A DNA stretch of 64,000 bases, from contig CAWIAD010000002.1 of NCBI GenBank assembly GCA_963833985.1, forward strand, positions 3,008,001-3,072,000. Direction: 5' to 3'. This stretch comes from an uncultured Planctomycetaceae bacterium. GTDB lineage: Bacteria; Planctomycetota; Planctomycetia; Isosphaerales; Isosphaeraceae. The translations under genes were made by a program, and so were the position numbers. Position 1 is the stretch's first letter. Every line of letters starts with the position of its first letter. Positions 13,060 through 34,178 of the stretch are shown here, piece after piece. The notes under the pieces are model-generated. The model did no database searches. It saw only the letters and a list, made by a program, of their open reading frames with translations, and was not told where the DNA came from.

Positions 13060-13240
13060 GGCCGCTCTCCTCGTGGGGTACGATTCCAATCGTGCCATGC
13101 CATTCTCGTGGGGCACGATTCCGATCGTGCCATTCCTGGTCCATCAGATAAAAGAAGTGACACGATCGGAATCGTATCCCACGAGGAGGAGAGGATGGAA
13201 GAAGCGACACGAATGGTATCGTGGCCCACAAAGAGCGGCC
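13060..13240. repeat. Cluster of four REP-like palindromes (GTGGG..ACGATTCCRATCGTG), two direct and two inverted
   Basis: Copies at 13070-13098 and 13105-13133 (+), 13157-13185 and 13204-13230 (-); bracketed by GGCCGCTCT/AGAGCGGCC; located between convergent genes. Confidence 0.85.
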
Positions 13241-16670: not shown

Positions 16671-18257
16671 CGCGCCCCCTTCCGCGGCGATGAGACGGGG
16701 CCGGCGCTCGAGGAAGGTTGCAGCTTCTGGAGGATCCGGTGCACGAACTGCCCGGCGAAGTCCTGCAAAAACTCGGTCCGGCTGGTCTCCTCGAACTGGC
16801 GCAGCACCACGCTGTCAATTCCCCCCGCGCCCCAGGACTGCTCCTGGCGGAAGTACTCCAGGAACGCCTTGCCGGAGATGCGCGTCAGGTAGGCCATCGT
16901 CACCGCCTGGACCGCGCCGCCGGCCGCGAAGCCCACCAGCGAGCGCTTGAAGATGCCGGCGATCAGCGACGTGGCGGCCTCAATGAGCCCGAGCTTGAGC
17001 ACCGATTGCACCATCTGGCCTGCCAGCCCGCGCACCTGGCCTGCCGAGAGCTCCGCCCCCTGCACGCGCCAGCTCGGCGATCATCTCGAGCTGCACGGCG
17101 CCTCCGGAGAGGATGTCGAGCGCGGGAATCGGGTTGGCGAAGACCGTGGCCGCGGTGATCCACTGGTGCTGGTCCACGACCTCGATCGCTCGTCGCTCCC
17201 GCTCGCGGCGAAGCTGCTCCTGGGCCTCCTGCTCGAGCACCCGGCCGCGCACCAGCAGGTTCATGGCGTGCAGAAGTTTTCCCTCGCCGCGAAGCAGCTC
17301 GACCATCCGCGACAGGAGCCCGGCGATGTCCGGGTCTTCCTTCTCGATCACGGTCTCGAACGTGCCGTCCCCGCGCTGGATGCGGACCGGCAGGGGCCGG
17401 GGTGCGGCCGCCACGGCCACGATGTCCTCCGGCTCGATCACGCCGGAGAGCCGCTCGCGCAGCCTGGACCGGATCGCCGCCAGGTCGGCGTCGGGGAACT
17501 GGTCCTTCTTGTTGAGCACGACGATCGACCGCTTGCCCAGCCGGGCCAGCTCGACCAGGGGCGTATACTCGCTGCGGATCAGGTCATGATCCACCACGAA
17601 CAGCAAGAGGTCGGCACGCACCGCCAGGGACCGGGCCAGGGTCTCGCGCGCCTCGCCGCCTTCGCCGGCTTCGGACATGCCGGGCGTGTCGGTCAGCTCC
17701 ACGAGGGCGTCCACCGACCGGAGCTGATAAGTGTGCGCGGCACCCTCGAGTGTCGTTCCCATCACCGCTTCGGTCTTGCCGACCTCCTGGCCGATCAGGG
17801 CGTTGATCAGTGAGGTCTTGCCCGCCGAGACCGTGCCGAAGACGACGACGCTCAGCTTGTTGAGCTCCTCCTGCCGCTCGGCATGCAGCCGCGCGAGCTC
17901 GCGGGCAAGCTTGGCCCTTTGAGACGGATCATTCACCCGGTCGATGAATTCCCCGGCGCGTTCCGCCTGGAGCCGGGCGGACGCGGCCAGGGTGCCGGGT
18001 ACCGGCTCCGCCGCGGAACGCGACGCAGCATCGCTGCCGCGCCGACCGGGTCGCCGGAACCACCGACCCACGGCCAGGGGCGCGCCGAGCCCGACGGCCA
18101 ATGTCAGCAACAGTGCCGCTGGCAGACTCATGCCGCGGATCCAGGGACCGGACCGCCCCTGGTTCCCAGCGAGCACGACGACCCCGGCCGCCAGCAACAG
18201 CAGCGCCGCCGCGAGCAGAAGGTAGACGTAAGCGTTGCGCGTGCGACGGATGCTCAT
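16667..18257 (-). CDS. Membrane-anchored Era-like GTPase with DUF697; frameshift near 17066
   Basis: Two N-terminal TM segments, GTVSAGKTS, DTPG, NKKD, ANPIPALD; continues in ORF 16667..17065. Confidence 0.85.
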
Positions 18258-18605
18258 GCCGGCGGCCGCCTCCCCGGGCCAGTTGGTTGCGGCGTCATGA
18301 GCACGGCCAACCCCGACCCAGGCGCCCTTCTTCGATTCTGACGCCAGATGCCACGCAGTGGCTAGGGGTCTTCAGCAGGGCTCCAGCGCAGCAAGCCCGC
18401 GTCAGGGCGGACCCCAAGGAGCCAGACCCGGCTGGAGCATCCGTGGGACGAGCTTAAAACGAGCAAGGCGCTACGTCCCACCCTCGCTTCCCAGACTCTG
18501 TCGAGAGGCCCCATGGATGAGAATCTGATGATTCGTAATGGAATGCCATTGCCCTCTTGAGCCAGGGTGTCCGGCAAAGCAAACGGCCCTTACGGCTGGC
18601 GATCG
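18146..18605. repeat. 460-bp direct repeat, copy 1 (5' end of the GTPase gene plus upstream region)
   Basis: Matches 24285-24744 at a constant offset of 6139 with about 6 substitutions by eye. Confidence 0.95.
18365..18512. ncRNA. Candidate structured element (ncRNA or MITE/REP-like), 148 nt; identical copy at 24504-24651
   Basis: Closing stem GGGGTCTT..GCAGGG / CTCTGT..GAGGCCCC; inner stems GCTCCAGC/GCTGGAGC and GTGGGACG/CGTCCCAC; no family recognised. Confidence 0.35.
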
Positions 18606-19131
18606 CGTACCGGATCGATTCCTGAGACCTTTGCTCTCACCAAGCAGAGAACATGGCTCGTGGGAAAGTCGAAACTTCCGAGCATGGACCTCGCCGTGAG
18701 CGTAGCCATGGCCCGGATTCGAAGCTCAACGGCAACGACCCCGCGTTAATCATCGACTGCTTTGTTTACCCCTGGACCCCAACCGGCCCTATCGGCATGA
18801 TGAAGGCCAAGGGAGCCACGCGGCGGGATCACGGCCAGTCGGCGGGCAGGTAGTGGGCGTCGTTGATCCTGTTTTTGCCCGCGATGTTGCCGCACAGTCC
18901 GGCACGGTCGTGATCCGCGCCGTAGCCGGAAATGAGCGTGAAGTTCGGCTGGCCGGAGCCGCCGAGGAGGAAGGAAGTCGAGCCAGTGAGCATGCGGGCG
19001 AATCCTCTGCAATCGAAGTACAGGCACGTCCAGAGCTTGATCCATCCCGCGCAGTTTGCTCGCGATCAGACGAATGCCCCTTCGCCATCCGTGAGCACGC
19101 GGCGGAGGAGCCGGGTGCCTTGATCTCCAGG

Positions 19132-19584
19132 CTAATGGACTCCAGAGAGGGGCACGCCAACCGTTTGGGCGGCGGATTTCAGCTTGTCATCAAGGGTTGC
19201 CAGCGGCAATCCCCGCCGCATGGCCAGCTCCAGGTAGGCGGCGTCATGGGCCGAAAGATGATGATCGCGGGCAAGGTTCAACGTATTCCCGAACGCATGG
19301 GCCTTTGTTTCGTCATCGACGGCGATGGGGAGCGAGGACAGAAACCCAATCCAGGTGACCGTATTGGCCTGGGTTGACCGTTTACGGCGTTCTCCGACCA
19401 GCAGGGTGTTCGCCACCTCAAGATGCCAGAGATCGGGCACAAAAGCCTGCTCGCAAGCCAATGCGTCGAGCACGGTCTGCGAGTAGGCGTCCTGCTCGTC
19501 GGGGAAGCACCACGCCACGGAAACCGAACTGTCGATGACCAGCCCAGTCTCGGGCGCCTTGGCGGCTGTTTTCTTCCGGCTCAA
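19132..19584 (-). CDS. vapC: VapC-type PIN-domain toxin
   Basis: 'LVIDSSVSVAWCFPDE', 'LEVANTL', 'DAAYLELA...LATLD'. Confidence 0.92.
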   Translation of the reverse strand: MSRKKTAAKAPETGLVIDSSVSVAWCFPDEQDAYSQTVLDALACEQAFVPDLWHLEVANTLLVGERRKRSTQANTVTWIGFLSSLPIAVDDETKAHAFGNTLNLARDHHLSAHDAAYLELAMRRGLPLATLDDKLKSAAQTVGVPLSGVH

Positions 19585-19834
19585 GGCCGTCCCTCCTCGA
19601 TCATCTCCTTGATTTCGCGGGCCTTGAGAGAGCCGTGCTTGCGGGCATGGTCCTGGCTATAGGCCCGGAACTGGGCGATCACGGCGGATACGTCGTGGGC
19701 GGGCACGGCCTGGGCGGGGGACAAAACCGCGACAGGCTTGCCGCGTTTGGTGATGGTGATCGTTTCACCCTTCTCCACCTGGCTCAAGAGCGGGGCAGGT
19801 GCGTCTTGGCTTCGTAGCTGCCAACAGAGTTCAT
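19581..19834 (-). CDS. Phd/YefM antitoxin; 1-nt frameshift near 19792
   Basis: MNSVGSYEAKTHLP from ATG 19834 joins LSQVEKGETITITKRGKPVA; ATGA overlap with the toxin. Confidence 0.85.
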
Positions 19835-20308
19835 CTGGTACACTCCATGCATGAACTGGTCTAATGCACCTAGTCTAACCGATCTTGCCAAGCCGGTTTA
19901 ATCGCTGGCCCACCCTTCCGCGTACTCAACCAGTATCCTGAGCGTCGTCTGCACGTGGTCCGTCATGCCCAGCCCGGAAGGGAAATCAAGCGATGTGCTC
20001 TCGGCCTGGATTTGGTAGCCATGCGAACACCTCCTGGAAAAGGGACAGGGAAAGTCGCGATTGTGCCAAATGGCATGGAGCGGCAATCCACCCTGCGAAA
20101 CAGGTCCGTGACAGTTGGCATCCATCGCGAATAGTGCCAGCCCGACGCAAGTTACGACTCCTGGATCGGAGACAGACCGGGGCACCGTCGGACGCTTGTC
20201 CGGAGGCCGGGTGGCACTATTCCCCTTTAGCTTCCCATCACTCGCCGATCGCCAGTTTTCCTGTCACACTCGCAAAGCGTTCGGAGGTATTCTCTTCGGA
20301 GGCAGGAG

Positions 20309-24229: not shown

Positions 24230-24284
24230 AGCACCGAAATCCCGCTCGATCTCTGCACCATACGTTTCGATTCAAGTATTCAGA

Positions 24285-24744
24285 GACCGGACCGCCCCTG
24301 GTTCCCCGCGAGCACGACGACCCCGACCGCCAGCAACACCAGCGCCGCCGCGAGCAGAAGGTAGACGTAAGCGTTGCGCGTGCGACGGATGCTCATGCCG
24401 GCGGCCGCCTCCCCGGGCCAGTTGGTTGCGGCGTCATGAGCACGGCCAACCCCGACCCAGGCGCCCTCCTTCGATTCTGACGCCCGATGCCACGCAGTGG
24501 CTAGGGGTCTTCAGCAGGGCTCCAGCGCAGCAAGCCCGCGTCAGGGCGGACCCCAAGGAGCCAGACCCGGCTGGAGCATCCGTGGGACGAGCTTAAAACG
24601 AGCAAGGCGCTACGTCCCACCCTCGCTTCCCAGACTCTGTCGAGAGGCCCCATGGATGAGAATCTGATGATTCGTAATGGAATGCCATTGCCCTCTTGAG
24701 CCAGGGTGTCCGGCAAAGCAAACGGCCCTGACGGCTGGCGATCG
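24285..24744. repeat. 460-bp direct repeat, copy 2 (contains the truncated 5' end of the GTPase gene)
   Basis: Near-identical to 18146-18605; ends immediately before the purine-stutter element. Confidence 0.95.
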
Positions 24745-24745
24745 T

Positions 24746-24918
24746 GGGGAAATAAAGGAAATAAAGGAAATAAAGAAATAAGAAGAAATAAAGGGACAGG
24801 CATTGTAAGGGAAAGAAAGGGGAAAGAAAGGGAAAGAAAGGGACAGGCATTGTTGCTTGCCCCGAGACGCTTGCAAGACTGCAATGCCTGTCCCTTTCTT
24901 CTGTGTCCCTTTCTTCTG
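24746..24918. mobile_element. Miniature inverted-repeat element (core 24841-24893) with stuttered purine/pyrimidine flanks, copy A
   Basis: AAGAAAGGGACAGGCATTG ... CAATGCCTGTCCCTTTCTT (19-bp IR); left flank GGAAATAAA and GGAAAGAAA iterations plus an extra half end at 24793-24806; right flank TGTCCCTTTCTTCTG x2. Confidence 0.75.
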
Positions 24919-25324
24919 CAAGCGGGGCGACGAGATCGCGCCACGCGGACGACGCTACGAGGGTCGCGTCGTCGTGTTGATCGGGGCGGTGAATAGTTCG
25001 GCCACCTTCCAGTTCGCCCAGGTCGTGAAAGAAAGCAAGCTGGCGACGCTTGTCGGTCAGACTACCGGGGGCAATCAGAGGGGGATCAACGGCAGCGCCT
25101 TCTTCTTCGTTACCCTGCCGAACTCGAAGATCGAGGTCGATCTGCCGCTGGTGGCTAATTTCATCGGCGACGAGCGGCCCACGGGCGAGAAGATACCGTT
25201 TCAGACGATTCCCGATGCCGGTATTGACCCTGACGTTTTGGTTAAGCCCAGCGTCGAGGACATTGCGGCGGGCGTGGATAGCGAGTTGAAGGCGGCCAGG
25301 GCGCTGCTGAAGGGCGGGAAGTAG
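24919..25324 (+). pseudogene. 3' fragment of an S41-family peptidase
   Basis: 'GRVVVLIGAVNSSATFQFA...LVGQTTGG...LPNSKIEVDLP...GIDPD'; begins abruptly at the repeat element. Confidence 0.8.
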
Positions 25325-25344
25325 GGGGGAAGCCAGGATGGAGC

Positions 25345-25635
25345 ACGTCAGAATCTTGCCCTGCTTCGCGTTCTGGGCGACCGCCGCCAGTACGAGCGCC
25401 TTGAACGCGTCTGCATCGACCTCCTCGCCTTCGTGTGGGTCGATCGCCCATCTCGCGTTTCCTTCCAGGCTGGAATTGAAGAGGCCCGATGGGTCAGGGA
25501 TACTCGCTCCCTTGGCGAAGGTCAGCTTGACCTAAGGGTTGCCGGTGCAGACGATCCCGTCGCGAGACCAGGTAAGAGCTCCCGCGGGATTCGACGGCTT
25601 GAACCATTTCCGCTCCTCGGTCGTCTCAGGATCAA
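25345..25635 (-). pseudogene. Degraded DUF1801 (YdhG-like) gene fragment
   Basis: 'DPETTEERKWFKPSNPAG..WSRDGIVCTG' then, after a break, 'VKLTFAKGASIPDPSGLFNSSLEGNARWAID...AFKALV'. Confidence 0.7.
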
Positions 25636-25893
25636 CCCGGTGGCCGCGGGGATCGCAGAGGTGCCCGAGGCCAGCCCGCACACGTCGATCAAGGAGCGGG
25701 TCGGCCACGTCCATTAGCAGGGGCGAGCGGAGGACCTGAAGGCCGCCGAGGCCGGCAGCGTGGCGGGGTCGCAGGCGGCGGAGGACCTGGAAGAGGGCCT
25801 GTGGCTGTACCCGATCGAGTACCGCCGGGGGCTGGAATCGGAGTCGGGTCGCAGTCGCGAAGGGATCGTCGAGGAGTTCTCACTGGGCAGCTA

Positions 25894-27066
25894 GTGTCCT
25901 GAGTTACAAATTCACCAAATAACCTTGACTTATCATGTATTCGTCATATAATCTCTCAAAGGAGATTTATGATGAATAAAGGTGGTCGCCCCAAGGCTAC
26001 TCTCACTTTGAATGATGTCGAGCGCCAGAAACTCGAAGCGTGGTCGCGCCGGCCCAAGACCAGCCAGCGTCTCGCCCTCCGTTCGCGGATCATCTTGGCT
26101 TGCGCTCAAGGTTTCGATAATCAGGAAGTCGCCGCACAGCTCCGGGTGAATGTCGTGACGGTCGGGAAATGGCGGAAACGTTTCCTCCTCGATCGTCTCG
26201 ACGGCCTGTCCGACGAGCCAAGGCCGGGGGCGCCCTGCAAAATCACGGACGCAATGGTCGAGGCCGTTGTGACCAAGACTCTGGAGGAGAAACCCAAGGC
26301 CGCCACGCATTGGAGCACTCGGGGCATGGCGGAAGCCGTCGGCTTGTCTCAGACAGCGATCTCGCGTATCTGGCGAGCGTTCGAGTTGAAGCCTCACCGC
26401 AGCGAGACGTTCAAGCTTTCCACGGACCCCTTTTTCATCGAGAAGGTCCGCGACATCGTCGGGTTGTATATGAGCCCGCCGGAGCGCGCTATCGTCTTGA
26501 GCATCGACGAGAAGAGCCAGGTGCAAGCGTTGGACCGTACCCAGCCGTTGCTTCCCATGGGGCCTGGCCAGGCGGAGAGGCGAACTCCGGATTATGTACG
26601 CAATGGGACGACTTCGCTGTTCGCCGCCTTGGACGTCGCGACAGGTCGTGTGATTGGCAAATGCTACCGTCGCCATCGACAACAAGAATTCCTCAAATTC
26701 CTCAACGAGATCGATAGCCAGATCGCCAAAGCACCAGGCGTCGAGATTCACCTCGTCATGGACAACTACGGCACACACAAAGCTCCAGCCGTGAAGCGGT
26801 GGTTCGCTCGCCATCCCGAGTATCATCTGCATTTCACTCCCACCAGCGGCTCTTGGCTGAACCAGGTTGAACGATTCTTCGCGGAGATTACCGAGAAGCG
26901 AATTCGCCGTGGAGTATTCCGGAGCGTGGCGGCGTTGGAACAGGCGATCCATGAATTCCTGGCAAAACACAACGTAAATCCCAAGCCTTTCGTATGGACG
27001 GCAGATGCTGATATGATCTTAGATCGAGTGGCGAGGGTTTGTGAGCGAACTTCTAACTCAGGACAC
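25894..27066 (+). mobile_element. IS630-family insertion sequence, 1173 bp, TA duplication at a CTAG target
   Basis: IRL GTGTCCTGAGTTACAAATTC; IRR reverse complement GTGTCCTGAGTTAGAAGTTC (18/20); flanked by TA at 25892-93 and 27067-68. Confidence 0.95.
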
Positions 27067-27069
27067 TAG
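25969..27069 (+). CDS. IS630-family DDE transposase
   Basis: HTH N-terminus, 'SIDEKSQ', 'MDNYGTHK', '[10 protein letters not shown]'. Confidence 0.95.
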
Positions 27070-27148
27070 TTATTGCTGGTGGATTACACGGGCCGGCTGT
27101 ATCGCGAGGGGAAGGCGGCGATCTCGGCGGAGCTGGCCGGGATTCCTG

Positions 27149-27260
27149 GAAGAAGGACAAGGACAGAAGGACAAGGACAGGCATTGTTGCTTGCCCCGAG
27201 ATGCTTGCAAAATGGCAATGCCTGTCCCTTTCGTCCCTTGTCCCTTTCGTCCCTTTCGTC
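27149..27260. mobile_element. Miniature inverted-repeat element (core 27175-27227) with stuttered flanks, copy B
   Basis: GGACAGGCATTG...CAATGCCTGTCC, 49/53 identical to 24841-24893; left flank GAAGGACAAGGACA x2; right flank GTCCCTT(T) iterations. Confidence 0.75.
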
Positions 27261-27670
27261 TCTCCTGGCTCGAAATTCCTCGCTTGAAGGACTTTTCGCG
27301 CGCGCTTCGTGAGCCGAGGCGCGATGGCTCTATCGACGTAGCGGGCGTTGCTGATGATCCATGCGCATGTGGATGCGCAAAAAATACCCCATCGCAACTT
27401 ATGAGTTGAACATTCAAAGGCTCCGTCCTATGCTTCGGAGGCGCAATTGCCTTCAACGTCGATGTGCTTCGCATGAAGGCATTCGATAGAACGATGAATG
27501 CGTTCACGCAAGATTCCTGCTAACCACGTTTCCAAGCGAGCCTGGCCGCATTGAATATCGCGGTGGGCTGTGGTTCCCCCGCGACCCGGACAGCACCATC
27601 CGAGACGTGGCGAGCGCGGCTGCGCGCTGGCCACACGTCCAACCCGTGTGCGAACCGCGTTAAATCTCCC

Positions 27671-29053
27671 ATGCAGGACACAACCATGCGAAAGGAAAGT
27701 TCTGATCGCGCCAGTCCCACCCGGCGGAAAATCCCCGCCCTACTGGGCCTCGGACTCGCGGCGTCCATGCTACTCGTCGCGGGCCTGCTGCCGCCCCTTC
27801 TCAATTCAGGCGATGCGCGCGCCGAGGGTACGAAGAACCGGGCTAAGAGCAGCCCCAGCCGCGTACAGGCAAGGCGGCGCAAACCGATACCAAAACCAAG
27901 CCCCGCGCCGGCACCTGCGCCCTCGCCCACACCCAGGCCAGCCGTAGTCAGCACACCATGGGTCGTGTTCGGCTACAGCGACCTGGGAATGCACTGCATG
28001 AACCAAGACGACTCCGAGCTCTGCTTGCTGCCGCCCTACAGCACCTATCGCGCTCAGGTGATCATCCGCGGAGAGGAGCCGCACATCGTCACCTCGGGAG
28101 CAACCGTTTCTTACAGCATCCCGGGCAACACCTATTCCGTCGGCAAATCCAACTTCTGGAACTACGTCCAGGCGCTCTTCGGAGTGAAACTGCCACCGAA
28201 TATCGGTCTGACGGGAAACGGGCTCACGGGGAGGATGTCGCCGACAAGCAACAACGACTGGCAGGTCACGGCAGTCCCCCTGACGCCCATCATGGATAAC
28301 GGCAAGACGAATACGTTTGCCCTCGGTAAGATCACCGTGACGCAAGGCAGCAAGACAATGGCCACCACCCAGGCAGTCCTGCCGGTGTCTTGGGAGATCA
28401 GTTGCAACCTCTGCCACAATCGGCCCGGCTTCCCGACCACCGCGGCCGACATCCTGGAGGCGCATGACCGCCTTCACAACACAAATCTTCAAAACCAGAA
28501 ACCTGTGCTTTGCGCGATCTGCCACGCCGACCCGGCGCTGGGCACGACCGGCGTCGCGGGAGTTCCAACGCTGTCGGCCTCGATGCACACGGCCCACGCC
28601 AGCCGATTCACGCCTCCGGTGCTGGCTCAGGTCAATGGCATCAACTGCTATGCGTGTCATCCTGGCATCAACACCCAGTGCCAGCGCGACATCCACCTCA
28701 CCAAGGGCATCCACTGCGGCGATTGCCACGGCACCATGACGGCCGTAGGCAACCCAAACCGTATCCCGTGGACTGACGAGCCCAAGTGCGCGAACTGCCA
28801 CAACGTGCCCGGGCACCAGTATGAGGAGCCAGGCAAGCTCTACAAGCAGTCGCGCGGACATAACGGCGTGATGTGCACCAGCTGCCATGGCGCACCGCAC
28901 GCCATCACCCCGACCGTGACCGCCAACGATAACGTCCAGGCGATCACGCTCCAGGGATACGCCGGAACGATCGACAACTGCGTGGTCTGCCACAAGCGGC
29001 GCCCCGACGACAGTTTCAACCACTCGCTCGGCGAAGGAGGTGGTGGCGACTGA
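27671..29053 (+). CDS. Multiheme c-type cytochrome (7 CxxCH motifs)
   Basis: CNLCH, CAICH, CYACH, CGDCH, CANCH, CTSCH, CVVCH; N-terminal hydrophobic leader, Pro-rich linker, 'DLGMHC' segment. Confidence 0.9.
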   Translation: MQDTTMRKESSDRASPTRRKIPALLGLGLAASMLLVAGLLPPLLNSGDARAEGTKNRAKSSPSRVQARRRKPIPKPSPAPAPAPSPTPRPAVVSTPWVVFGYSDLGMHCMNQDDSELCLLPPYSTYRAQVIIRGEEPHIVTSGATVSYSIPGNTYSVGKSNFWNYVQALFGVKLPPNIGLTGNGLTGRMSPTSNNDWQVTAVPLTPIMDNGKTNTFALGKITVTQGSKTMATTQAVLPVSWEISCNLCHNRPGFPTTAADILEAHDRLHNTNLQNQKPVLCAICHADPALGTTGVAGVPTLSASMHTAHASRFTPPVLAQVNGINCYACHPGINTQCQRDIHLTKGIHCGDCHGTMTAVGNPNRIPWTDEPKCANCHNVPGHQYEEPGKLYKQSRGHNGVMCTSCHGAPHAITPTVTANDNVQAITLQGYAGTIDNCVVCHKRRPDDSFNHSLGEGGGGD

Positions 29054-29262
29054 TCTGAAATCAGCCGCGGCGTGAGCAACTCGAACAGACTCCACAACGT
29101 CGACGCGGCCGGGATCGGTTCCAGGCGTCGGTCCCGGCCGCCGTCCTCTGGGAACAGACAACACATCCCTTCGGTGTCTTCCCTCTCGACTCCTGAAGCA
29201 CATTCGTCCACATCGACTCCGGGGAGTTCTCTCCAGCCCGCCTGCGCACACGCCACGACGCC

Positions 29263-29305
29263 AAGGGACAGGACAAAAACAGGACAAAAAGGACAGGCAA
29301 CGCAT
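29263..29305 (+). repeat. Stuttered GGACAGGCA end motif upstream of the HUH transposase (putative element left end)
   Basis: AAGGGACAGGACAAAAACAGGACAAAAAGGACAGGCAACGCATT, about 60 bp before the transposase ATG. Confidence 0.65.
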
Positions 29306-29366
29306 TCATGACCTGGGCGGTGGAATCGGGTAGCTTGTGCGGATCTTGCTGGGAGGTCCGTGCATA

Positions 29367-29700
29367 ATGATTGCCCGTGCGCATCTGGTGGATCCGTCGG
29401 TTACCGGCTGGTACCACTGCATCACGCGGTGCGTGCGACGGGCGTTTCTGCTGGGTGAAGGCGGGCTCGACCGCAAGGAATGGATCGAACGGCGGTTGCG
29501 GGAACTTGCGGAGATCTTTTCTGTTGCCGTGGGCGGGTTCGCCATCCTCGACAACCGCCTGCACCTGCTGGTGCGGCTCGATCCTGATGTCGCCGCCGGG
29601 TGGTCGGATGAGGAGGCCGTTCGCCGCTGGGGCCGGCTCGTTCCGCCCCGCGACAAGGCCAGGCAGGCTCTGGCGGTCTCGGAAGCCTGGATGCAGGACC
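29367..29700 (+). pseudogene. N-terminal fragment of a Y1/HUH (RAYT-like) transposase; HUH motif degenerate (NRLH)
   Basis: 'WYHCITRCVRRAFL...RKEWIERRL...FAILDNRLHLLVR...WSDEEAVRRW'; truncated at the stutter starting at 29701. Confidence 0.85.
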
Positions 29701-29748
29701 GGAGAAAGAAAGGACAGGAGAAAGAAAGGACAGGCATCTTGCGACTTC
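29701..29748 (+). repeat. (GGAGAAAGAAAGGACA)x2 + GGCATCTTGCGACTTC end motif; second copy at 31073-31095
   Basis: AAGGACAGGCATCTTGCGACTTC (29726-29748) vs AAGGTCAGGCATCTTGCGACTTC (31073-31095), 22/23 identical. Confidence 0.8.
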
Positions 29749-29925
29749 CCATTTTACAAAAGTGGCTGGTCTGAACCGCTATGGGTTCTTCCCCGTGAGT
29801 CATGAAGAGGAAGGGGCTGAGTCGCTTTGAGTGAGTTCGAGTCGATGAGAACCTCTCAAACCTCACCCAGGAAGCGATTACCCAGGCGGTCACGATGTCG
29901 GAGTCTCGGTGATGCGTCGCGGGGA

Positions 29926-30492
29926 CTAGAGTTCGTCCTCGTGCGGCAGGAGCCGAGCCACCGTCTCGGTAAGGCGACACTGTCCGAGCGTGGCCAGATA
30001 TTCGGCCGCGGTCTTCGGGGGCCGCGTCAGGCCCTCCCGCTGACGCCGTGCCGACTCGAGTACGGCAGCCGGGGCCTCGTCCCAGAGACGGACGATGAAC
30101 TCATCTGGGTGCACGGCTTCGATGTGGTAGCCGCCCAAGACCGAGGCTGGGAAGTCGCTCAAGTTGAACGTGACGATGACCCCTGCTCCGCCGTGGATGG
30201 CTGCGGCGAGTACGTGACGGTCATCTGGGTCAGGGAGCGTGACGGTCCGGATGAGGAATTCATACCGGGTGATCAGGCAGTCCGGGACGTGCCGGTCCAT
30301 GAGTTCTCGACACCGGTCAAGGCTTTCCCGGGTGATGTCCGGACGGTCCGCCAGGACGCTCCGTATCCACTCGTCGTGGATTTCGTCGGTCCAACGGGCT
30401 TGGAAGAGGCTCGTCAAAGCAAGCCGCATGAGGAAATCGCGGAGCGGGGCCGGGTAGAGCACGCAGGCGTCGAGGACAACGATTCGAGCCAT
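29926..30492 (-). CDS. PIN-domain protein (PIN_3 type), putative toxin
   Basis: 'VVLDACVLYPAPLRD', 'LPDPDDRHVLAAAI...IVTFNLSDFP'. Confidence 0.9.
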   Translation of the reverse strand: MARIVVLDACVLYPAPLRDFLMRLALTSLFQARWTDEIHDEWIRSVLADRPDITRESLDRCRELMDRHVPDCLITRYEFLIRTVTLPDPDDRHVLAAAIHGGAGVIVTFNLSDFPASVLGGYHIEAVHPDEFIVRLWDEAPAAVLESARRQREGLTRPPKTAAEYLATLGQCRLTETVARLLPHEDEL

Positions 30493-30496
30493 GCGG

Positions 30497-30958
30497 TCAG
30501 TAGCCCATATCGAGGTCTTGGCTCAATGCCGCAAGCTCATCGAGGGCTTCGTGCCGCCTGGCCTCGAAATCCCGCTTGTAGGCGAGGAGGTCCGTCAGTA
30601 GCACGCGGCGGTGACTCCCCACCTTCCGGCCGGGAATCGCCCCCTCGTCCAGGAGCTTCACCAGGTGCGGCCGGGAGACGTTCAGGAGGTCAGCTGCTTG
30701 CTGGGTCGTCAGTTCCGCATGAACCGGCGTCAGGGTCACCGCGTTCCCCTGGCCCAGCTCCGCCAGTGCCCGGACGAGCAACCGCAACGCCAACGGAGGT
30801 AGCACCAGCTCCTCCCTCTCGGTGCCGGTTCTTAGCTCCAGCCGGAGCCCGCCTTTTTGACCCAGGTGGGCCGCGAGTTTCTCGCCCATTTCCCTGGCCA
30901 GGGCCGCGTCGGCCTCGCTCGGTGTGACCACCTCATTGCCGTTTGCCAGTTGGGCCAT
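30497..30958 (-). CDS. Excisionase-like HTH protein (putative antitoxin)
   Basis: 'ELTTQQAADLLNVSRPHLVKLLDEGAIP..KVGSHRRV'; typical partner of PIN_3 proteins. Confidence 0.9.
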   Translation of the reverse strand: MAQLANGNEVVTPSEADAALAREMGEKLAAHLGQKGGLRLELRTGTEREELVLPPLALRLLVRALAELGQGNAVTLTPVHAELTTQQAADLLNVSRPHLVKLLDEGAIPGRKVGSHRRVLLTDLLAYKRDFEARRHEALDELAALSQDLDMGY

Positions 30959-31249
30959 CGCTTGCCGCCTCCTTCCGTCGGTTCTCGACTCCCAATTACG
31001 CTACCACATCCGAACCATAATCGCAACAAACGAAACAATGCCACCGGGCGGCATGGGCGTCGATTACACCGGAAGGTCAGGCATCTTGCGACTTCTCAAC
31101 AAGCGGAGGGCTTACGATCGGCAGATATTCTCATGAAGCGCGGTCCAACGGGCTTTCTTCAGGCTTGTTATCCATGAAAGCTTGCGCGATGGCTTCCGGT
31201 GCGTCCATCGTTAGGATGCGTTGCATGTCCCATCGCTCCTCATCGCTCC

Positions 31250-31636
31250 TATCGCTCCTTGGAGCGGCTTGACCACGGCAAGCCAGGCGGCCAGGGCAAG
31301 TTCGGACAACGAATCCCGCACGGACGGCTTGCACGCCACCCTGAACTGTGGCTGGCCCCATTCGTGCTCCTGGACGATCCGGCCGCGGAGCCGACGAACA
31401 ACCGCGCGGAGCGGTTGCTTCGCGACCCGGGCGTCATCGCGCGGAAGGTATCGTGCGGGAACCAGACCGAGGCGGGTCAGGGCGCATGGGAGCGGCTGAC
31501 CAGCGTGGCGATGACCTGCCAGCAACACTCCCAAGACTTCGTCTCCTGGCTGGCCGGGTGCCTGCCCCTCGACGCTCAGGTGCTCCCTATCCCGCCGCCC
31601 CCAACCCAGGCCGCTCGACCCGAACGCCGGGAGTAA
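31250..31636 (+). pseudogene. IS66-family TnpC transposase C-terminal remnant
   Basis: 'LDDPAAEPTNNRAERLLR..VIARKVSCGNQTEAG....LTSVAMTC'. Confidence 0.75.
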
Positions 31637-31788
31637 TCCCCCGGGGCCACCCGGCCCGTTTCCGTCCCCGGCCTGAGTCGATGATCGCGTGAAGAGCTTC
31701 GCGTCCCCTCGGCATCAATACCTCCTTACATCAAGATCACGCTTTACTGCCTTTCAGGGTAAACGACGTGTTGATCTCGGCTGAAACA

Positions 31789-32073
31789 TCACGGCCCGCC
31801 ACGATAGACGTCCTTGCGATGACCAAGCCGAAGCACGATCACGATCAAACGGTCATCCCGGATGGCGTAAATCACACGGTAGTTGCCCACGCGAATTCGA
31901 TAGAGGTCGTCTTCCCCGCTCAGCTTTTTGACGCCTCGCGGACGTGGCTCAAACCCCAAAGCCTCAATGTGAGCCGCGATGCGTTCGCGAGGTTTTCGGG
32001 GAAGATCGGAGAGCTGCTTGAGTGCTGATGGAGTGATCTCGATCTGATACCTGGGTTCCGGTCCTGTAGCCAC
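31789..32073 (-). CDS. relE: RelE/ParE-family toxin
   Basis: 'YQIEITPSALKQL...PRPRGVKKLSG..LYRIRVGNYRVIY...GHRKDVYR'. Confidence 0.93.
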   Translation of the reverse strand: MATGPEPRYQIEITPSALKQLSDLPRKPRERIAAHIEALGFEPRPRGVKKLSGEDDLYRIRVGNYRVIYAIRDDRLIVIVLRLGHRKDVYRGGP

Positions 32074-32076
32074 CTG

Positions 32077-32328
32077 TCAGAGCCCTAGTTCGGCCTTGGC
32101 CTGATCCCAAGGGATCGTTCCTCCGCGCTCGATTTCCTCCAAGGCTTGCCGGGCGGCCTTGAGGTCTCGACGGCGCTCGATTACCTCCAGGAGTGCCAGA
32201 TCCTCAACAGAGACAATCGCGGCGATCCCCTTGTTGTGCCTGTGGATCAGGTATCGAGCGCCCTTCCGTGCGCGTCTTACCACGCCAGCGAAATCCTTCC
32301 TTGCCTCGCTAGCAGTCACTTTGATCAT
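32077..32328 (-). CDS. Phd/YefM antitoxin
   Basis: 'VTASEARKDFAGVV...IHRHNKGIAAIVSVEDL...IPWDQAKAELGL'; GGAGG RBS. Confidence 0.9.
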   Translation of the reverse strand: MIKVTASEARKDFAGVVRRARKGARYLIHRHNKGIAAIVSVEDLALLEVIERRRDLKAARQALEEIERGGTIPWDQAKAELGL

Positions 32329-32348
32329 CAAGTGATGCCTCCCATATT

Positions 32349-32434
32349 TTTGTACAAAGCTGCCAAGCACAGCTATCTCTATCATACGGTATTTTCAGCA
32401 TTCTTGAACACGCCGCATAGACATTTTGTACAAA
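32349..32434. promoter_or_regulatory. Two TTTGTACAAA palindromes, putative Phd-type autorepression operators
   Basis: Perfect 10-bp palindromes at 32349-32358 and 32425-32434 upstream of the antitoxin; GTAC core typical of Phd/YefM operators. Confidence 0.65.
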
Positions 32435-32582
32435 GTATTCCAGACAAATGGGATAGGGAAACGCTGAGCAACCAGAGCACGCCACAGCCCCTCCTGCCCC
32501 GCCGGTACCCCGCCAATTGGACGAAGCGGCTTCGCCGCGGGCTGGCATCCTTGAGACGAATCGCTACTGGCCACTTGCACTG

Positions 32583-33088
32583 ACATCGACCTGAATCCAG
32601 TGGCAGCGGGCCTGGCCAGCGCGCCAGAGACGAGCGCTCATACGTCAATCAAGGAGCGGGTGGAGCACGTCCAGGAGCAGGGCCGGACCGAGGACCTGGA
32701 GGCCGCCAGGGCCGGCAGTGTGGCGGGGTCGCAGGCGGCTGCGGGGCTGGAGGAGGGGCTGTGGCTCTGCCCGATCGAGGACCGCCGCAGCCTCGGCTCA
32801 CCGCGCGAAGGGATGCTCGAGGGATTCGCGCTGGGCAGCTACCTGCTGCTGGTGGATGACACGGGCCGGCTGTTCCGGGAGGGGAAGGCGGCCATCTCGG
32901 TGGAGCTGGCCGGGATCCTGGAGCGGCTGGGAACGAGCGCCGAGAGCTGGCGGGCGCGGCTGCTGAAGCTGGCTGGCGGCCGGCTACTGGGGCGGTTCTT
33001 CGCGGCGACCCGAGGACGCTTGCGGGAGATTGCCGGGCGGCTGAACGTGCACCACCTGGCGAACCTGGGCGGCTGCGCCGCGGGGTGA
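32583..33088 (+). pseudogene. C-terminal fragment of a Y1/HUH (RAYT-like) transposase lacking the catalytic Tyr
   Basis: 'IDLNPVAAG...HTSIKERV...WLCPIEDRR...YLLLVDDTGRLFREGKAAIS...GRFFA'. Confidence 0.85.
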
Positions 33089-33637: not shown

Positions 33638-33843
33638 CTGGTCCGGCCAGGGCGAGCCGTGGAAGGGAGCGGCATTTCCAGGGGGGGGGTGGTCGAGCGC
33701 CGGGCTACCACGGCGAGCGAGGAATGCCGTGCACCGTGCCCGAGTTCTTGAAACAGGGTGCATTGCTCCACGCCGACCGACCCCGCCAGGCGGTGCAAGA
33801 GTCGCACCATGGAGGGGCTTTAGCGACTATACCGTTGAAATAG

Positions 33844-33996
33844 CGTTAGAGCGGTTTTCTGGCGCGTTGCAGGCAGTTTCTGAGTTTCTAAAGGGGGGGG
33901 CAGACATTCCTGTCTGCCTGGACAGGCCTGCTCCGGCAGGCAGGAATGCCTGCCCCCCGGTTCCAGTCTGCGATCCGAGTGAAAACCGCTCTAACG
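33844..33996. repeat. 16-bp inverted-repeat element enclosing a REP doublet
   Basis: CGTTAGAGCGGTTTTC / GAAAACCGCTCTAACG; inside GGGGGGCAGACATTCCTGTCTGCC (33895-33918) and inverted GGCAGGCAGGAATGCCTGCCCCCC (33935-33958). Confidence 0.85.
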
Positions 33997-34022
33997 AAAA
34001 GGGGCAAGAGGATTGCGACAGA

Positions 34023-34150
34023 CTTGTTCCCACGCTCTGCGTGGGGACACCGGTCGGGACGCTCCGCGTTCCACGGATTTCCCAGCCTCGGCGCGGGCTC
34101 AATCGACGCGGTGCGTCGCAGACGGCATTCCCACGGAGCGTGGGAACGAG
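34023..34150. repeat. REPIN-like palindromic element (GTTCCCACGCTCYGCGTGGG family)
   Basis: CTTGTTCCCACGCTCTGCGTGGG...GACGCTCCGCGT...GACGCGGTGCGTC...CATTCCCACGGAGCGTGGGAACGAG. Confidence 0.8.
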
Positions 34151-34178
34151 GGAAGCGTCGCACCATGTTGGGGCTGAG

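Follow-up and report, generated by a model that had tools for sequence, protein, structure and literature searches.

We analysed a 64,000-nt stretch of contig CAWIAD010000002.1 from an uncultured Planctomycetaceae bacterium (GCA_963833985.1; the whole stretch is called the window below), whose genome of 10.16 Mb lies on two contigs (C1 and C2). At about 18.1-34.3 kb, the window carries an island in which a short motif, GGWCAGGCA, recurs among transposase fragments, small two-ended elements and unrelated genes. We consider it probable, though well short of certain, that this motif forms the fixed end of an element present in many copies and encoding an HUH/Y1 transposase, and that the island consists of single-end joins and dead transposase fragments produced by nick-primed copying. 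Each end is polar: its inner side faces the gene, and its outer side carries head-to-tail partial copies of the end (arrays), typically starting anew some 10 nt ahead of GGACA. We refer to the ten bases from this restart point up to GGACA as the leader.

Layout of the island

The core genes that flank the island lie about 650 bp apart in a related genome (G002), whose synteny with the window breaks off near 18002, and 9-10 kb apart, with different content between them, in two others (G004 and G013). The window holds the densest end cluster of the genome, with 7 of the 41 listed ends and, in addition, the end at 31230 on the minus strand, giving eight end sites. It also contains three mini-elements (M1-M3), three dead transposase fragments and unrelated IS630 and IS66 DNA. 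The features, in order, are as follows.

18139-18605: copy 1 of a duplication, comprising the upstream region and 5' part of a DUF697/GTPase gene and forming the left boundary of the island
24278-24744: copy 2 of the duplication, lying on the outer (target) side of the first end array, at which the homology ends
24745-24840, plus strand: array of 3'-truncated end copies containing the motif at 24794; two leaders, one base apart
24841-24893: mini-element M1, 53 bp, with two inverted ends; fold z -6.1
24894-24918, minus strand: array outside the right end of M1
24919-25324, plus strand: 5'-truncated S41 peptidase gene (PF03572), last ~135 codons; homologue in G004
25325-25633, minus strand: DUF1801 gene fragment (PF08818 below cut-off, E 7e-6), joined to a transposase fragment without an end
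25634-25893 and 27070-27150, plus strand: internal transposase fragment, split by the IS630-type element and cut at 27150 by the M2 array
25891-27069, plus strand: IS630-type element with DDE_3 and helix-turn-helix (HTH) domains and inverted repeats of its own, flanked on either side by CTAG; a later insertion
27151-27265: mini-element M2, whose core (27175-27227) has an array on each outer side; fold z -4.1
27551-29053, plus strand: intact 7-heme cytochrome gene (seven CxxCH), on the outer side of both neighbouring ends
29261-29363, plus strand: array, true left end (motif at 29291) and 5' untranslated region
29364-29702, plus strand: 5' third of the transposase gene, with HUH altered to NRLH; cut by the next array
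29703-29750, plus strand: array and short end (motif at 29728)
29926-30958, minus strand: HTH_17 and PIN toxin-antitoxin-like pair, the sole intact genes within an inward-facing end pair (29728 plus to 31230 minus)
31075-31262: mini-element M3, with a variant end at 31075 (plus), an end at 31230 (minus) and the array of the latter at 31231-31262
31263-31615, plus strand: fragment of a repeated family joined to a C-terminal fragment of an IS66 transposase
31789-32385, minus strand: Phd and ParE toxin-antitoxin pair
32543-33088, plus strand: 3' half of the transposase gene, encoding YIDLNP; the 8 kb downstream contain no inverted end

A preliminary description of this DNA had read the island as a growing series of cassettes delimited by the motif. 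Its motif positions were borne out, with eight in the island and one of them at 29291 rather than 29289. The looser copy that it placed at 20038 (20038-20050) has no array and fails the end scans, and its list was incomplete, as the minus-strand end at 31230 with its own array was overlooked. So was the IS630-type element, which has 10 copies or part-copies in the genome and is unrelated to the motif. The motif does stand at the end of the duplication, which is 467 bp long instead of 460, has copies that are 98.3% identical and ends at the array before 24794. The motif also stands at the start of the truncated S41 peptidase, which is a C-terminal fragment by Pfam and whose homologue in G004 lies within a longer reading frame. 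The two transposase fragments said to be cut at the motif stop at 27150 and 29702, directly abutting arrays. The unrelated cargo was confirmed as well, comprising the 7-heme cytochrome, PIN with HTH_17, ParE with Phd, and gene fragments. An end was correctly placed upstream of the Y1 transposase start, at 73 nt and not at about 60 bp. M1 is related to the elements at window position 27175 and at C2:510432. A promoter scan found no site at the left end of the window.

The end, its arrays and the transposase family

The window contains 11 copies of GGWCAGGCA where 1.65 would be expected, and none of 100 shuffles reaches 11. Eight copies lie in the island (24794, 24841, 24885 minus, 27175, 27219 minus, 29291, 29728 and 31075) and three outside it (9824, 13832 and 63779). 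When the motif is searched genome-wide, as the preliminary description had proposed, the bare 9-mer proves weak, with 291 matches on both contigs, 61 of which pass an A-rich upstream filter; the Markov expectation used for comparison was derived from C2. What holds genome-wide is the extended end with its outer array, and this is the real signal. The end reads GGACA(G/T)GCA followed by about 12 more bases, about 21 nt in total (consensus GGACAGGCAACGCAGTCTTGA, with G or T at position 6). It sits 73-74 nt ahead of the start codon in all 13 full-length copies of the transposase gene; the earlier assignment of the motif to a RAYT-related HUH/Y1 family is upheld by these intact copies, which carry it. 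An unbiased profile scan gave 79 matches, compared to 19 in the reversed genome. Early scans demanded two purines before GGACA, which missed the end at 31230 and biased the leader composition of a 40-end set. The left end folds no better than shuffled sequences (z 0.09). Of 26 loci in relatives, 21 have a match to the end pattern in the 200 nt ahead of the gene, including a spurious one (12 nt before the start). A one-mismatch match to the short end at 29728 and 31075 was found in 4 of 120 family genomes, with one control match, and no conserved family was established. A separate hairpin family shares the initial GGACAGGCA and likewise shows tandem re-copying (C1:297084, C2:1151312, C2:5714558 and other sites).

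The array units have a preferred start and a widely spread stop. Among 99 units, 32 start at -10 from the first G and 66 at -12 to -8, whereas the stops spread from -9 to +72. One unit measures 557 bp (C2:3954755), and stops range from a few to 545 nt inside the end. In a tiling parse, arrays were detected at 23 of 43 listed ends, one mis-positioned entry being scored 0, and at 5 of 150 control sites. Because the 43-end list was partly chosen for repeats, the fair figure comes from left ends picked solely by their position before the gene, 9 of 16 of which carry arrays (control 5 of 150). Some arrays mix ends from two or three donors (C2:198761-198862 and 802308-802369).

The genome contains 46 stretches of the transposase gene, together 0.22% of its length; 13 are full length, and 11 of these are open from the expected start. 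The listed copies are 89-93% identical to the query protein, and the closest relatives, going by record titles, lie within Isosphaeraceae and other Planctomycetota. The protein is an HUH/Y1 transposase of 344 amino acids. Intact copies have NHLH (64-67) and YIDLNP (177-182), so that the NHxH of the preliminary description is correct for them; the N-terminal fragment in the window reads NRLH. H65, H67, Y177, T197-S198 and Y263 are kept in at least 90% of 60 diverse homologues, and the catalytic tyrosine is predicted to be Y177. The genome copies read FFEGRF where the diverse consensus reads FWEGRF, in the region of the subclass WE motif. Pfam Y1_Tnp is passed narrowly (24.5 against a cut-off of 23), and the RAYT equivalog NF047646 is missed (39.5 bits against a cut-off of 80). 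The fold model is nearest to E. coli TnpA-REP (4ER8; Z 11.3, root-mean-square deviation 3.3 over 160 residues; Foldseek E 5.8e-4) and places helices at 74-127 between a strand (66-72) and a helix (130-148). A sequence search of solved structures gave no match, and no polymerase or helicase domain stood out in the fold searches, in which the C-terminal part was barely tested. All three transposase fragments in the window are dead, the N-terminal one bearing NRLH; any activity in the island therefore came from another copy, and the intact copies elsewhere in the genome could act in trans.

Palindrome-rich tracts lie behind most copies of the gene, with 35-87 matches per motif genome-wide, and two folded samples gave z values of +1.2 and -1.7. 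Two sites, C2:551463 and C2:2519151, carry almost identical copies of a longer transposase relative (44% identity); these have another end motif, the same left array and different right-hand sequence. Among the 150 best representatives in a protein library, many are 130-300 amino acids long and match the query in part at 65-84% identity, which would fit frequent truncation and fusion throughout the family.

Single ends, joins to unrelated DNA and a proposed copying model

The ends seldom form pairs around the gene. An exact inward-facing end lies within 8 kb at 2 of 22 gene 3' ends and behind 1 of the 13 full-length copies, so that bracketing of intact copies by inverted ends, which the preliminary description had suggested looking for, is confined to that one copy. 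The lone inverted end behind a full copy at C2:2800264 breaks a sequence that is continuous in three other copies. In all 26 ends that do not precede a gene, agreement with the left-end profile stops at +8 to +28, beyond which lies other DNA, which is another stub, an internal point of the transposase gene or unrelated sequence. At four ends, the outer junction falls within coding DNA of the transposase family itself, which makes up 0.22% of the genome.

Seven two-ended mini-elements are present in the genome. Of 10 end pairs, six could be tested against a homologue, and the flanks are non-contiguous in all six. The mini-element at C2:510432 stands in place of some 510 bp of a transposase gene. 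Across M1, the duplicated stretch meets the middle of the S41 gene, and across M2 a transposase fragment meets the cytochrome region; the flanks of M3 and of the pairs at C2:5031482-5031528 and C2:5692263-5692732 are likewise non-contiguous. The pair at C2:5023786 was judged apart from these six, solely through what we take to be an IS5-like motif. The view that junctions are marked by ends thus stands for the six pairs, which do join unrelated DNA, and fails for several island junctions (24277/24278, 25633/25634, 31368/31369 and 32542/32543), where no end passes the scans. At the junctions compared, target duplications were not observed. No conserved right end or terminator was found at the far boundaries, and no shared sequence at the target junctions is evident by eye. 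The shared downstream stretches of the copies stop at different places, and the longest includes a gene family that is separately multi-copy. The 1.8-2.2 kb shared behind three copies was considered as proof of capture and rejected, as this gene family has about 11 copies itself. A gene beginning with the TTAQIAANRRNA motif occurs in about 11 copies of 94-96% identity (e.g., C2:799233-800582); three such genes lie directly behind the 3' palindrome tract of the transposase, and the gene may be a mobile element of its own.

We favour a model in which the enzyme would recognise the end and nick the top strand about 10 nt outside it. The 5' end would be held on the tyrosine (predicted Y177), and a host polymerase would extend the free 3'-OH. 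HUH enzymes leave a 5'-phosphotyrosine and a free 3'-OH, and a nick-extend-rejoin model has been proposed for TnpA-REP and the amplification of bacterial interspersed mosaic elements, according to the available part of that account (PMC3333891). Rejoining of the extended strand to the held end in place would add a truncated unit to the array; nicking at -10, extension of the 3'-OH and rejoining would give units their fixed 5' start and variable 3' stop. Joining of the copied strand to another site after brief extension would yield a stub end or a mini-element, and a long run-on would move the whole gene with a variable distal boundary, as in one-ended transposition of IS91. Because the two sides would be made independently, neighbouring DNA could be lost, duplicated or exchanged. 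Small shifts in where the nick falls would reassemble the leader out of fragments of the end. Passenger genes would be moved occasionally as a by-product, not as cassettes.

A bolder version, which we offer as a speculation with perhaps a modest chance of being right, takes each end as a free-standing launch site that is nicked one helical turn outside, its strand being joined in one step to nearby broken DNA and its ten-base purine leader rewritten at each event. Subclass 2.3 of the Y1 transposases would then be one-ended splicers that build flexible islands, carrying toxin-antitoxin, cyclic-oligonucleotide-based anti-phage signalling system (CBASS) or sigma-kinase genes, without an integrase, a terminator or a target site.

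Several points weigh against nick-primed copying from single ends. The 99 units derive from an end list that was partly selected for purine-rich leaders and repeats, the units inside one array are not independent, and arrays occur at only 5 of 21 left ends of relatives. Copies identical over their first 327 coding bases share just 4 of 10 and 6 of 10 leader bases; this divergence exceeds simple inheritance, and the untranslated regions of those copies differ too. Both the strand and the position of the nick have been deduced from scars, and the same geometry would result if a bottom strand ran off the template at a fixed end and were primed again. In five loci of other lineages (L013, L025, L026, L027 and L031), an inverted end lies close behind the gene, which means that one-endedness may be decay in the present lineage. 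Finally, a clean insertion followed by an adjacent deletion could leave the same non-contiguous flanks.

The last two points lead to an alternative that we consider rather unlikely: the family could be an ordinary two-ended element with terminal inverted repeats of about 20 nt and derivatives of the miniature inverted-repeat transposable element type, which inserts cleanly and is later reshaped by adjacent deletions or recombination in a region crowded with mobile DNA. The seven mini-elements and the five loci with inverted ends are what such an element would show, and adjacent deletions frequently explain missing target duplications, as stated in the part of the source at hand (PMC11708052). 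In addition, another multi-copy repeat lies within 5 kb of 12 of 23 end clusters, 5 of 10 IS630 copies and 16% of random sites; end clusters are thus near repeats no oftener than IS630, and part of the mosaic is ordinary hotspot accumulation. However, none of the six testable pairs is clean, whereas the IS630-type element of the window sits cleanly in the transposase fragment. The putative right ends lack a common position, and one interrupts a sequence intact in three copies. Arrays with a fixed restart at -10 also remain unexplained by a two-ended element.

Leader, cargo and known systems

The leader is purine-rich though the genome is 65% G+C: 15 position-defined left ends, an unbiased set, give A98 G37 C13 T2. 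Leaders are nearly unique, with 39 different ones among 40 ends, and at all 10 testable junctions the leader differs from the continuation of the intact homologue (three of the homologues are 99% identical). On these comparisons, the leader is not target DNA. Such findings would suit a leader made without a template at each event, as a tail on the cut end or as a primer, with target ends priming repeated copying from a new template end and host end-joining assisting; the host has two Ku genes. We regard this as improbable, because leaders are sometimes inherited, being identical at C2:5692263 and 5695833 and shared at 9 of 10 bases in the relative pairs L050/L051 and L012/L015, and because one relative lineage retains a T-containing leader core. 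Leaders are also richer in end-derived words than column shuffles, with 48 C-containing 3-mers against 28.0 (0 of 5000 shuffles) and 25 4-mers against 11.7, and no polymerase-like domain stood out in the model.

The cassette reading of the preliminary description, in which ends serve as cassette sites and whole heterologous modules are added to a growing array, fares worse and is very unlikely. The ends do join unrelated DNA, the arrays that mix two or three donors' ends show that ends are re-targeted, one inward pair encloses the intact PIN-HTH module, and three other islands share the layout of mini-element, cargo and element. But the ends are polar, and the cargo lies mostly on their outer side, as the cytochrome does at both neighbouring ends, and is cut inside genes. 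Among 30 loci with cargo homologues elsewhere (cytochrome 3, PIN-HTH 24, S41 1, sigma-kinase cluster 1 and PIN toxin-antitoxin 1), none is bracketed by ends, three have a single weak or distant end-like site, and none has the transposase. Of 40 relatives, 3 have cytochrome homologues, all of them free of ends for 1.5 kb around, and no second end-bounded PIN-HTH copy was found in the genome or among the best 24 matches in 120 family genomes. Several junctions carry no end, as described above. The ends make joins, and nothing shows a cassette pool.

Two of the other islands are described here. The 13-kb island at C2:5022200-5035600 has two mini-elements and an intact copy, and replaces a 267-bp gap of G004; three of its cargo blocks recur in G007:C108 in circularly permuted order. 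The island at C2:2788142-2800264 lies between a mini-element and a full element, and its cargo comprises a CBASS-like pair (SMODS/DncV nucleotidyltransferase and patatin), a TIR protein and an HTH-IrrE protein.

An assembly or sequencing artefact, with a chimeric mosaic and arrays made of read errors, is hardly credible: the best public run covers 0.10 of the stretch and four runs compared with it yielded only pieces from other organisms, which leaves the mosaic without independent read support, but the same end and arrays occur in likely short-read assemblies (L018, L019 and L031) and megabase contigs (L013 and L026), the units restart at one offset genome-wide, and the core genes flanking the island are adjacent in G002.

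We compared the family with known systems. In integrons, unrelated genes, including toxin-antitoxin pairs, are strung between short repeated sites, and the island resembles them in this respect. It differs in that none of 13 PF00589 (integrase) matches lies in the window, its sites face both ways, its cargo is cut mid-gene and was not seen elsewhere as site-bounded units. In IS91, oriIS lies downstream of the gene and the active site has two tyrosines. The fixed end of the present family lies upstream of the gene, its family and fold matches are to Y1/TnpA-REP, and neither a shared far-boundary sequence like terIS nor a target tetranucleotide was seen. IS91 and ISCR elements, as portrayed in the accessible part of PMC13181058, do resemble the family in their HUH enzyme, the absence of target duplication, and one fixed end with a variable far boundary that can carry adjacent DNA. 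That text gives IS91 a defined terIS, a target tetranucleotide and one-ended events at 1-14%, whereas one-endedness is apparently the rule here, and its available portion describes no arrays for IS91 (PMC13181058).

TnpA-REP of the REPtrons provides the nearest solved fold, and its nick-extension-attack scheme would add a tandem unit. In the portion of the account available (PMC3333891), the enzyme cuts C^T at many distances and its own gene is apparently immobile; here, in contrast, restarts concentrate around one distance, no common dinucleotide being evident at the resolution of the parse, and 13 full copies of the gene are present. TIRtrons, to judge from the available text (PMC3733652), share a RAYT-like tyrosine transposase (TIRYT), terminal repeat motifs and free-standing repeat families with the present element, and their consensus GGGGWSAS resembles RRGGACAG. 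This consensus is not matched by the present end, however, as A predominates at positions -2 and -1 (at each of them in 30 of 40 ends), and inverted repeats on both sides are exceptional here (1 of 13), although present in the five loci of other lineages. Most TIRYTs are assigned to subclass 2.1, and the same portion of text describes no arrays or rearrangements (PMC3733652).

As judged from its sequence features, the transposase fits TnpA-Y1 subclass 2.3 as set out in the part of PMC6006769 at hand. It has 344 amino acids against a median of 325, NHLH where the HuH motif type is NHYH (class 2 allows L as the middle residue), YIDLNP for YVDLNP, a long C-terminal tail with the TS motif, and the insertion of about 55 amino acids after the HUH strand, between beta3 and alphaC; several diverged copies per genome are also typical, and 13 full-length copies are found here. 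That part of the account mentions no ends, arrays or mini-elements and no flanks resembling repetitive extragenic palindromes, and gives mainly Chromatiales and Alteromonadales as hosts (PMC6006769); the present family differs in its planctomycete lineage, defined end and arrays, and perhaps in the palindrome-rich tracts behind the gene. Searches of the main texts of open-access articles turned up neither published ends nor later work on subclass 2.3. The TnpA of IS200/IS605 (subclass 1.1), with about 150 amino acids, Y---Q and subterminal hairpins, is unlike the present protein, with its 344 amino acids, Y---NP and a left end that folds no better than shuffled sequence.

Y1 proteins of subclass 2.3 are very common (1075 clusters of 2.3-like proteins at E up to 1e-30 in the protein library) and have been catalogued, yet lack a described substrate in the literature searched. 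The genome offers a substrate (the ~21-nt end), a predicted nick position (-10), a candidate catalytic tyrosine (Y177), intact enzymes and natural mini-elements, and the mechanism is therefore directly testable. If the ends act singly, the family would give rise to deletions, duplications and shuffled genes in the large genomes of soil bacteria. It would also represent a nickase-ligase that is guided by sequence and cuts some way from its recognition site.

Further repeats were noted in the window. Nested inverted repeats of 31-33 nt, 85-90% complementary, lie at 13067-13188. Two further high-copy repeat families lie at the right edge of the island (33829-34154), one of them a palindromic element with arms resembling the GGGGWSAS type. 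In addition, a Phd-PIN pair is duplicated at 86% identity, at window positions 19036-19892 and at C2:494574-495444, and both islands are end-rich.

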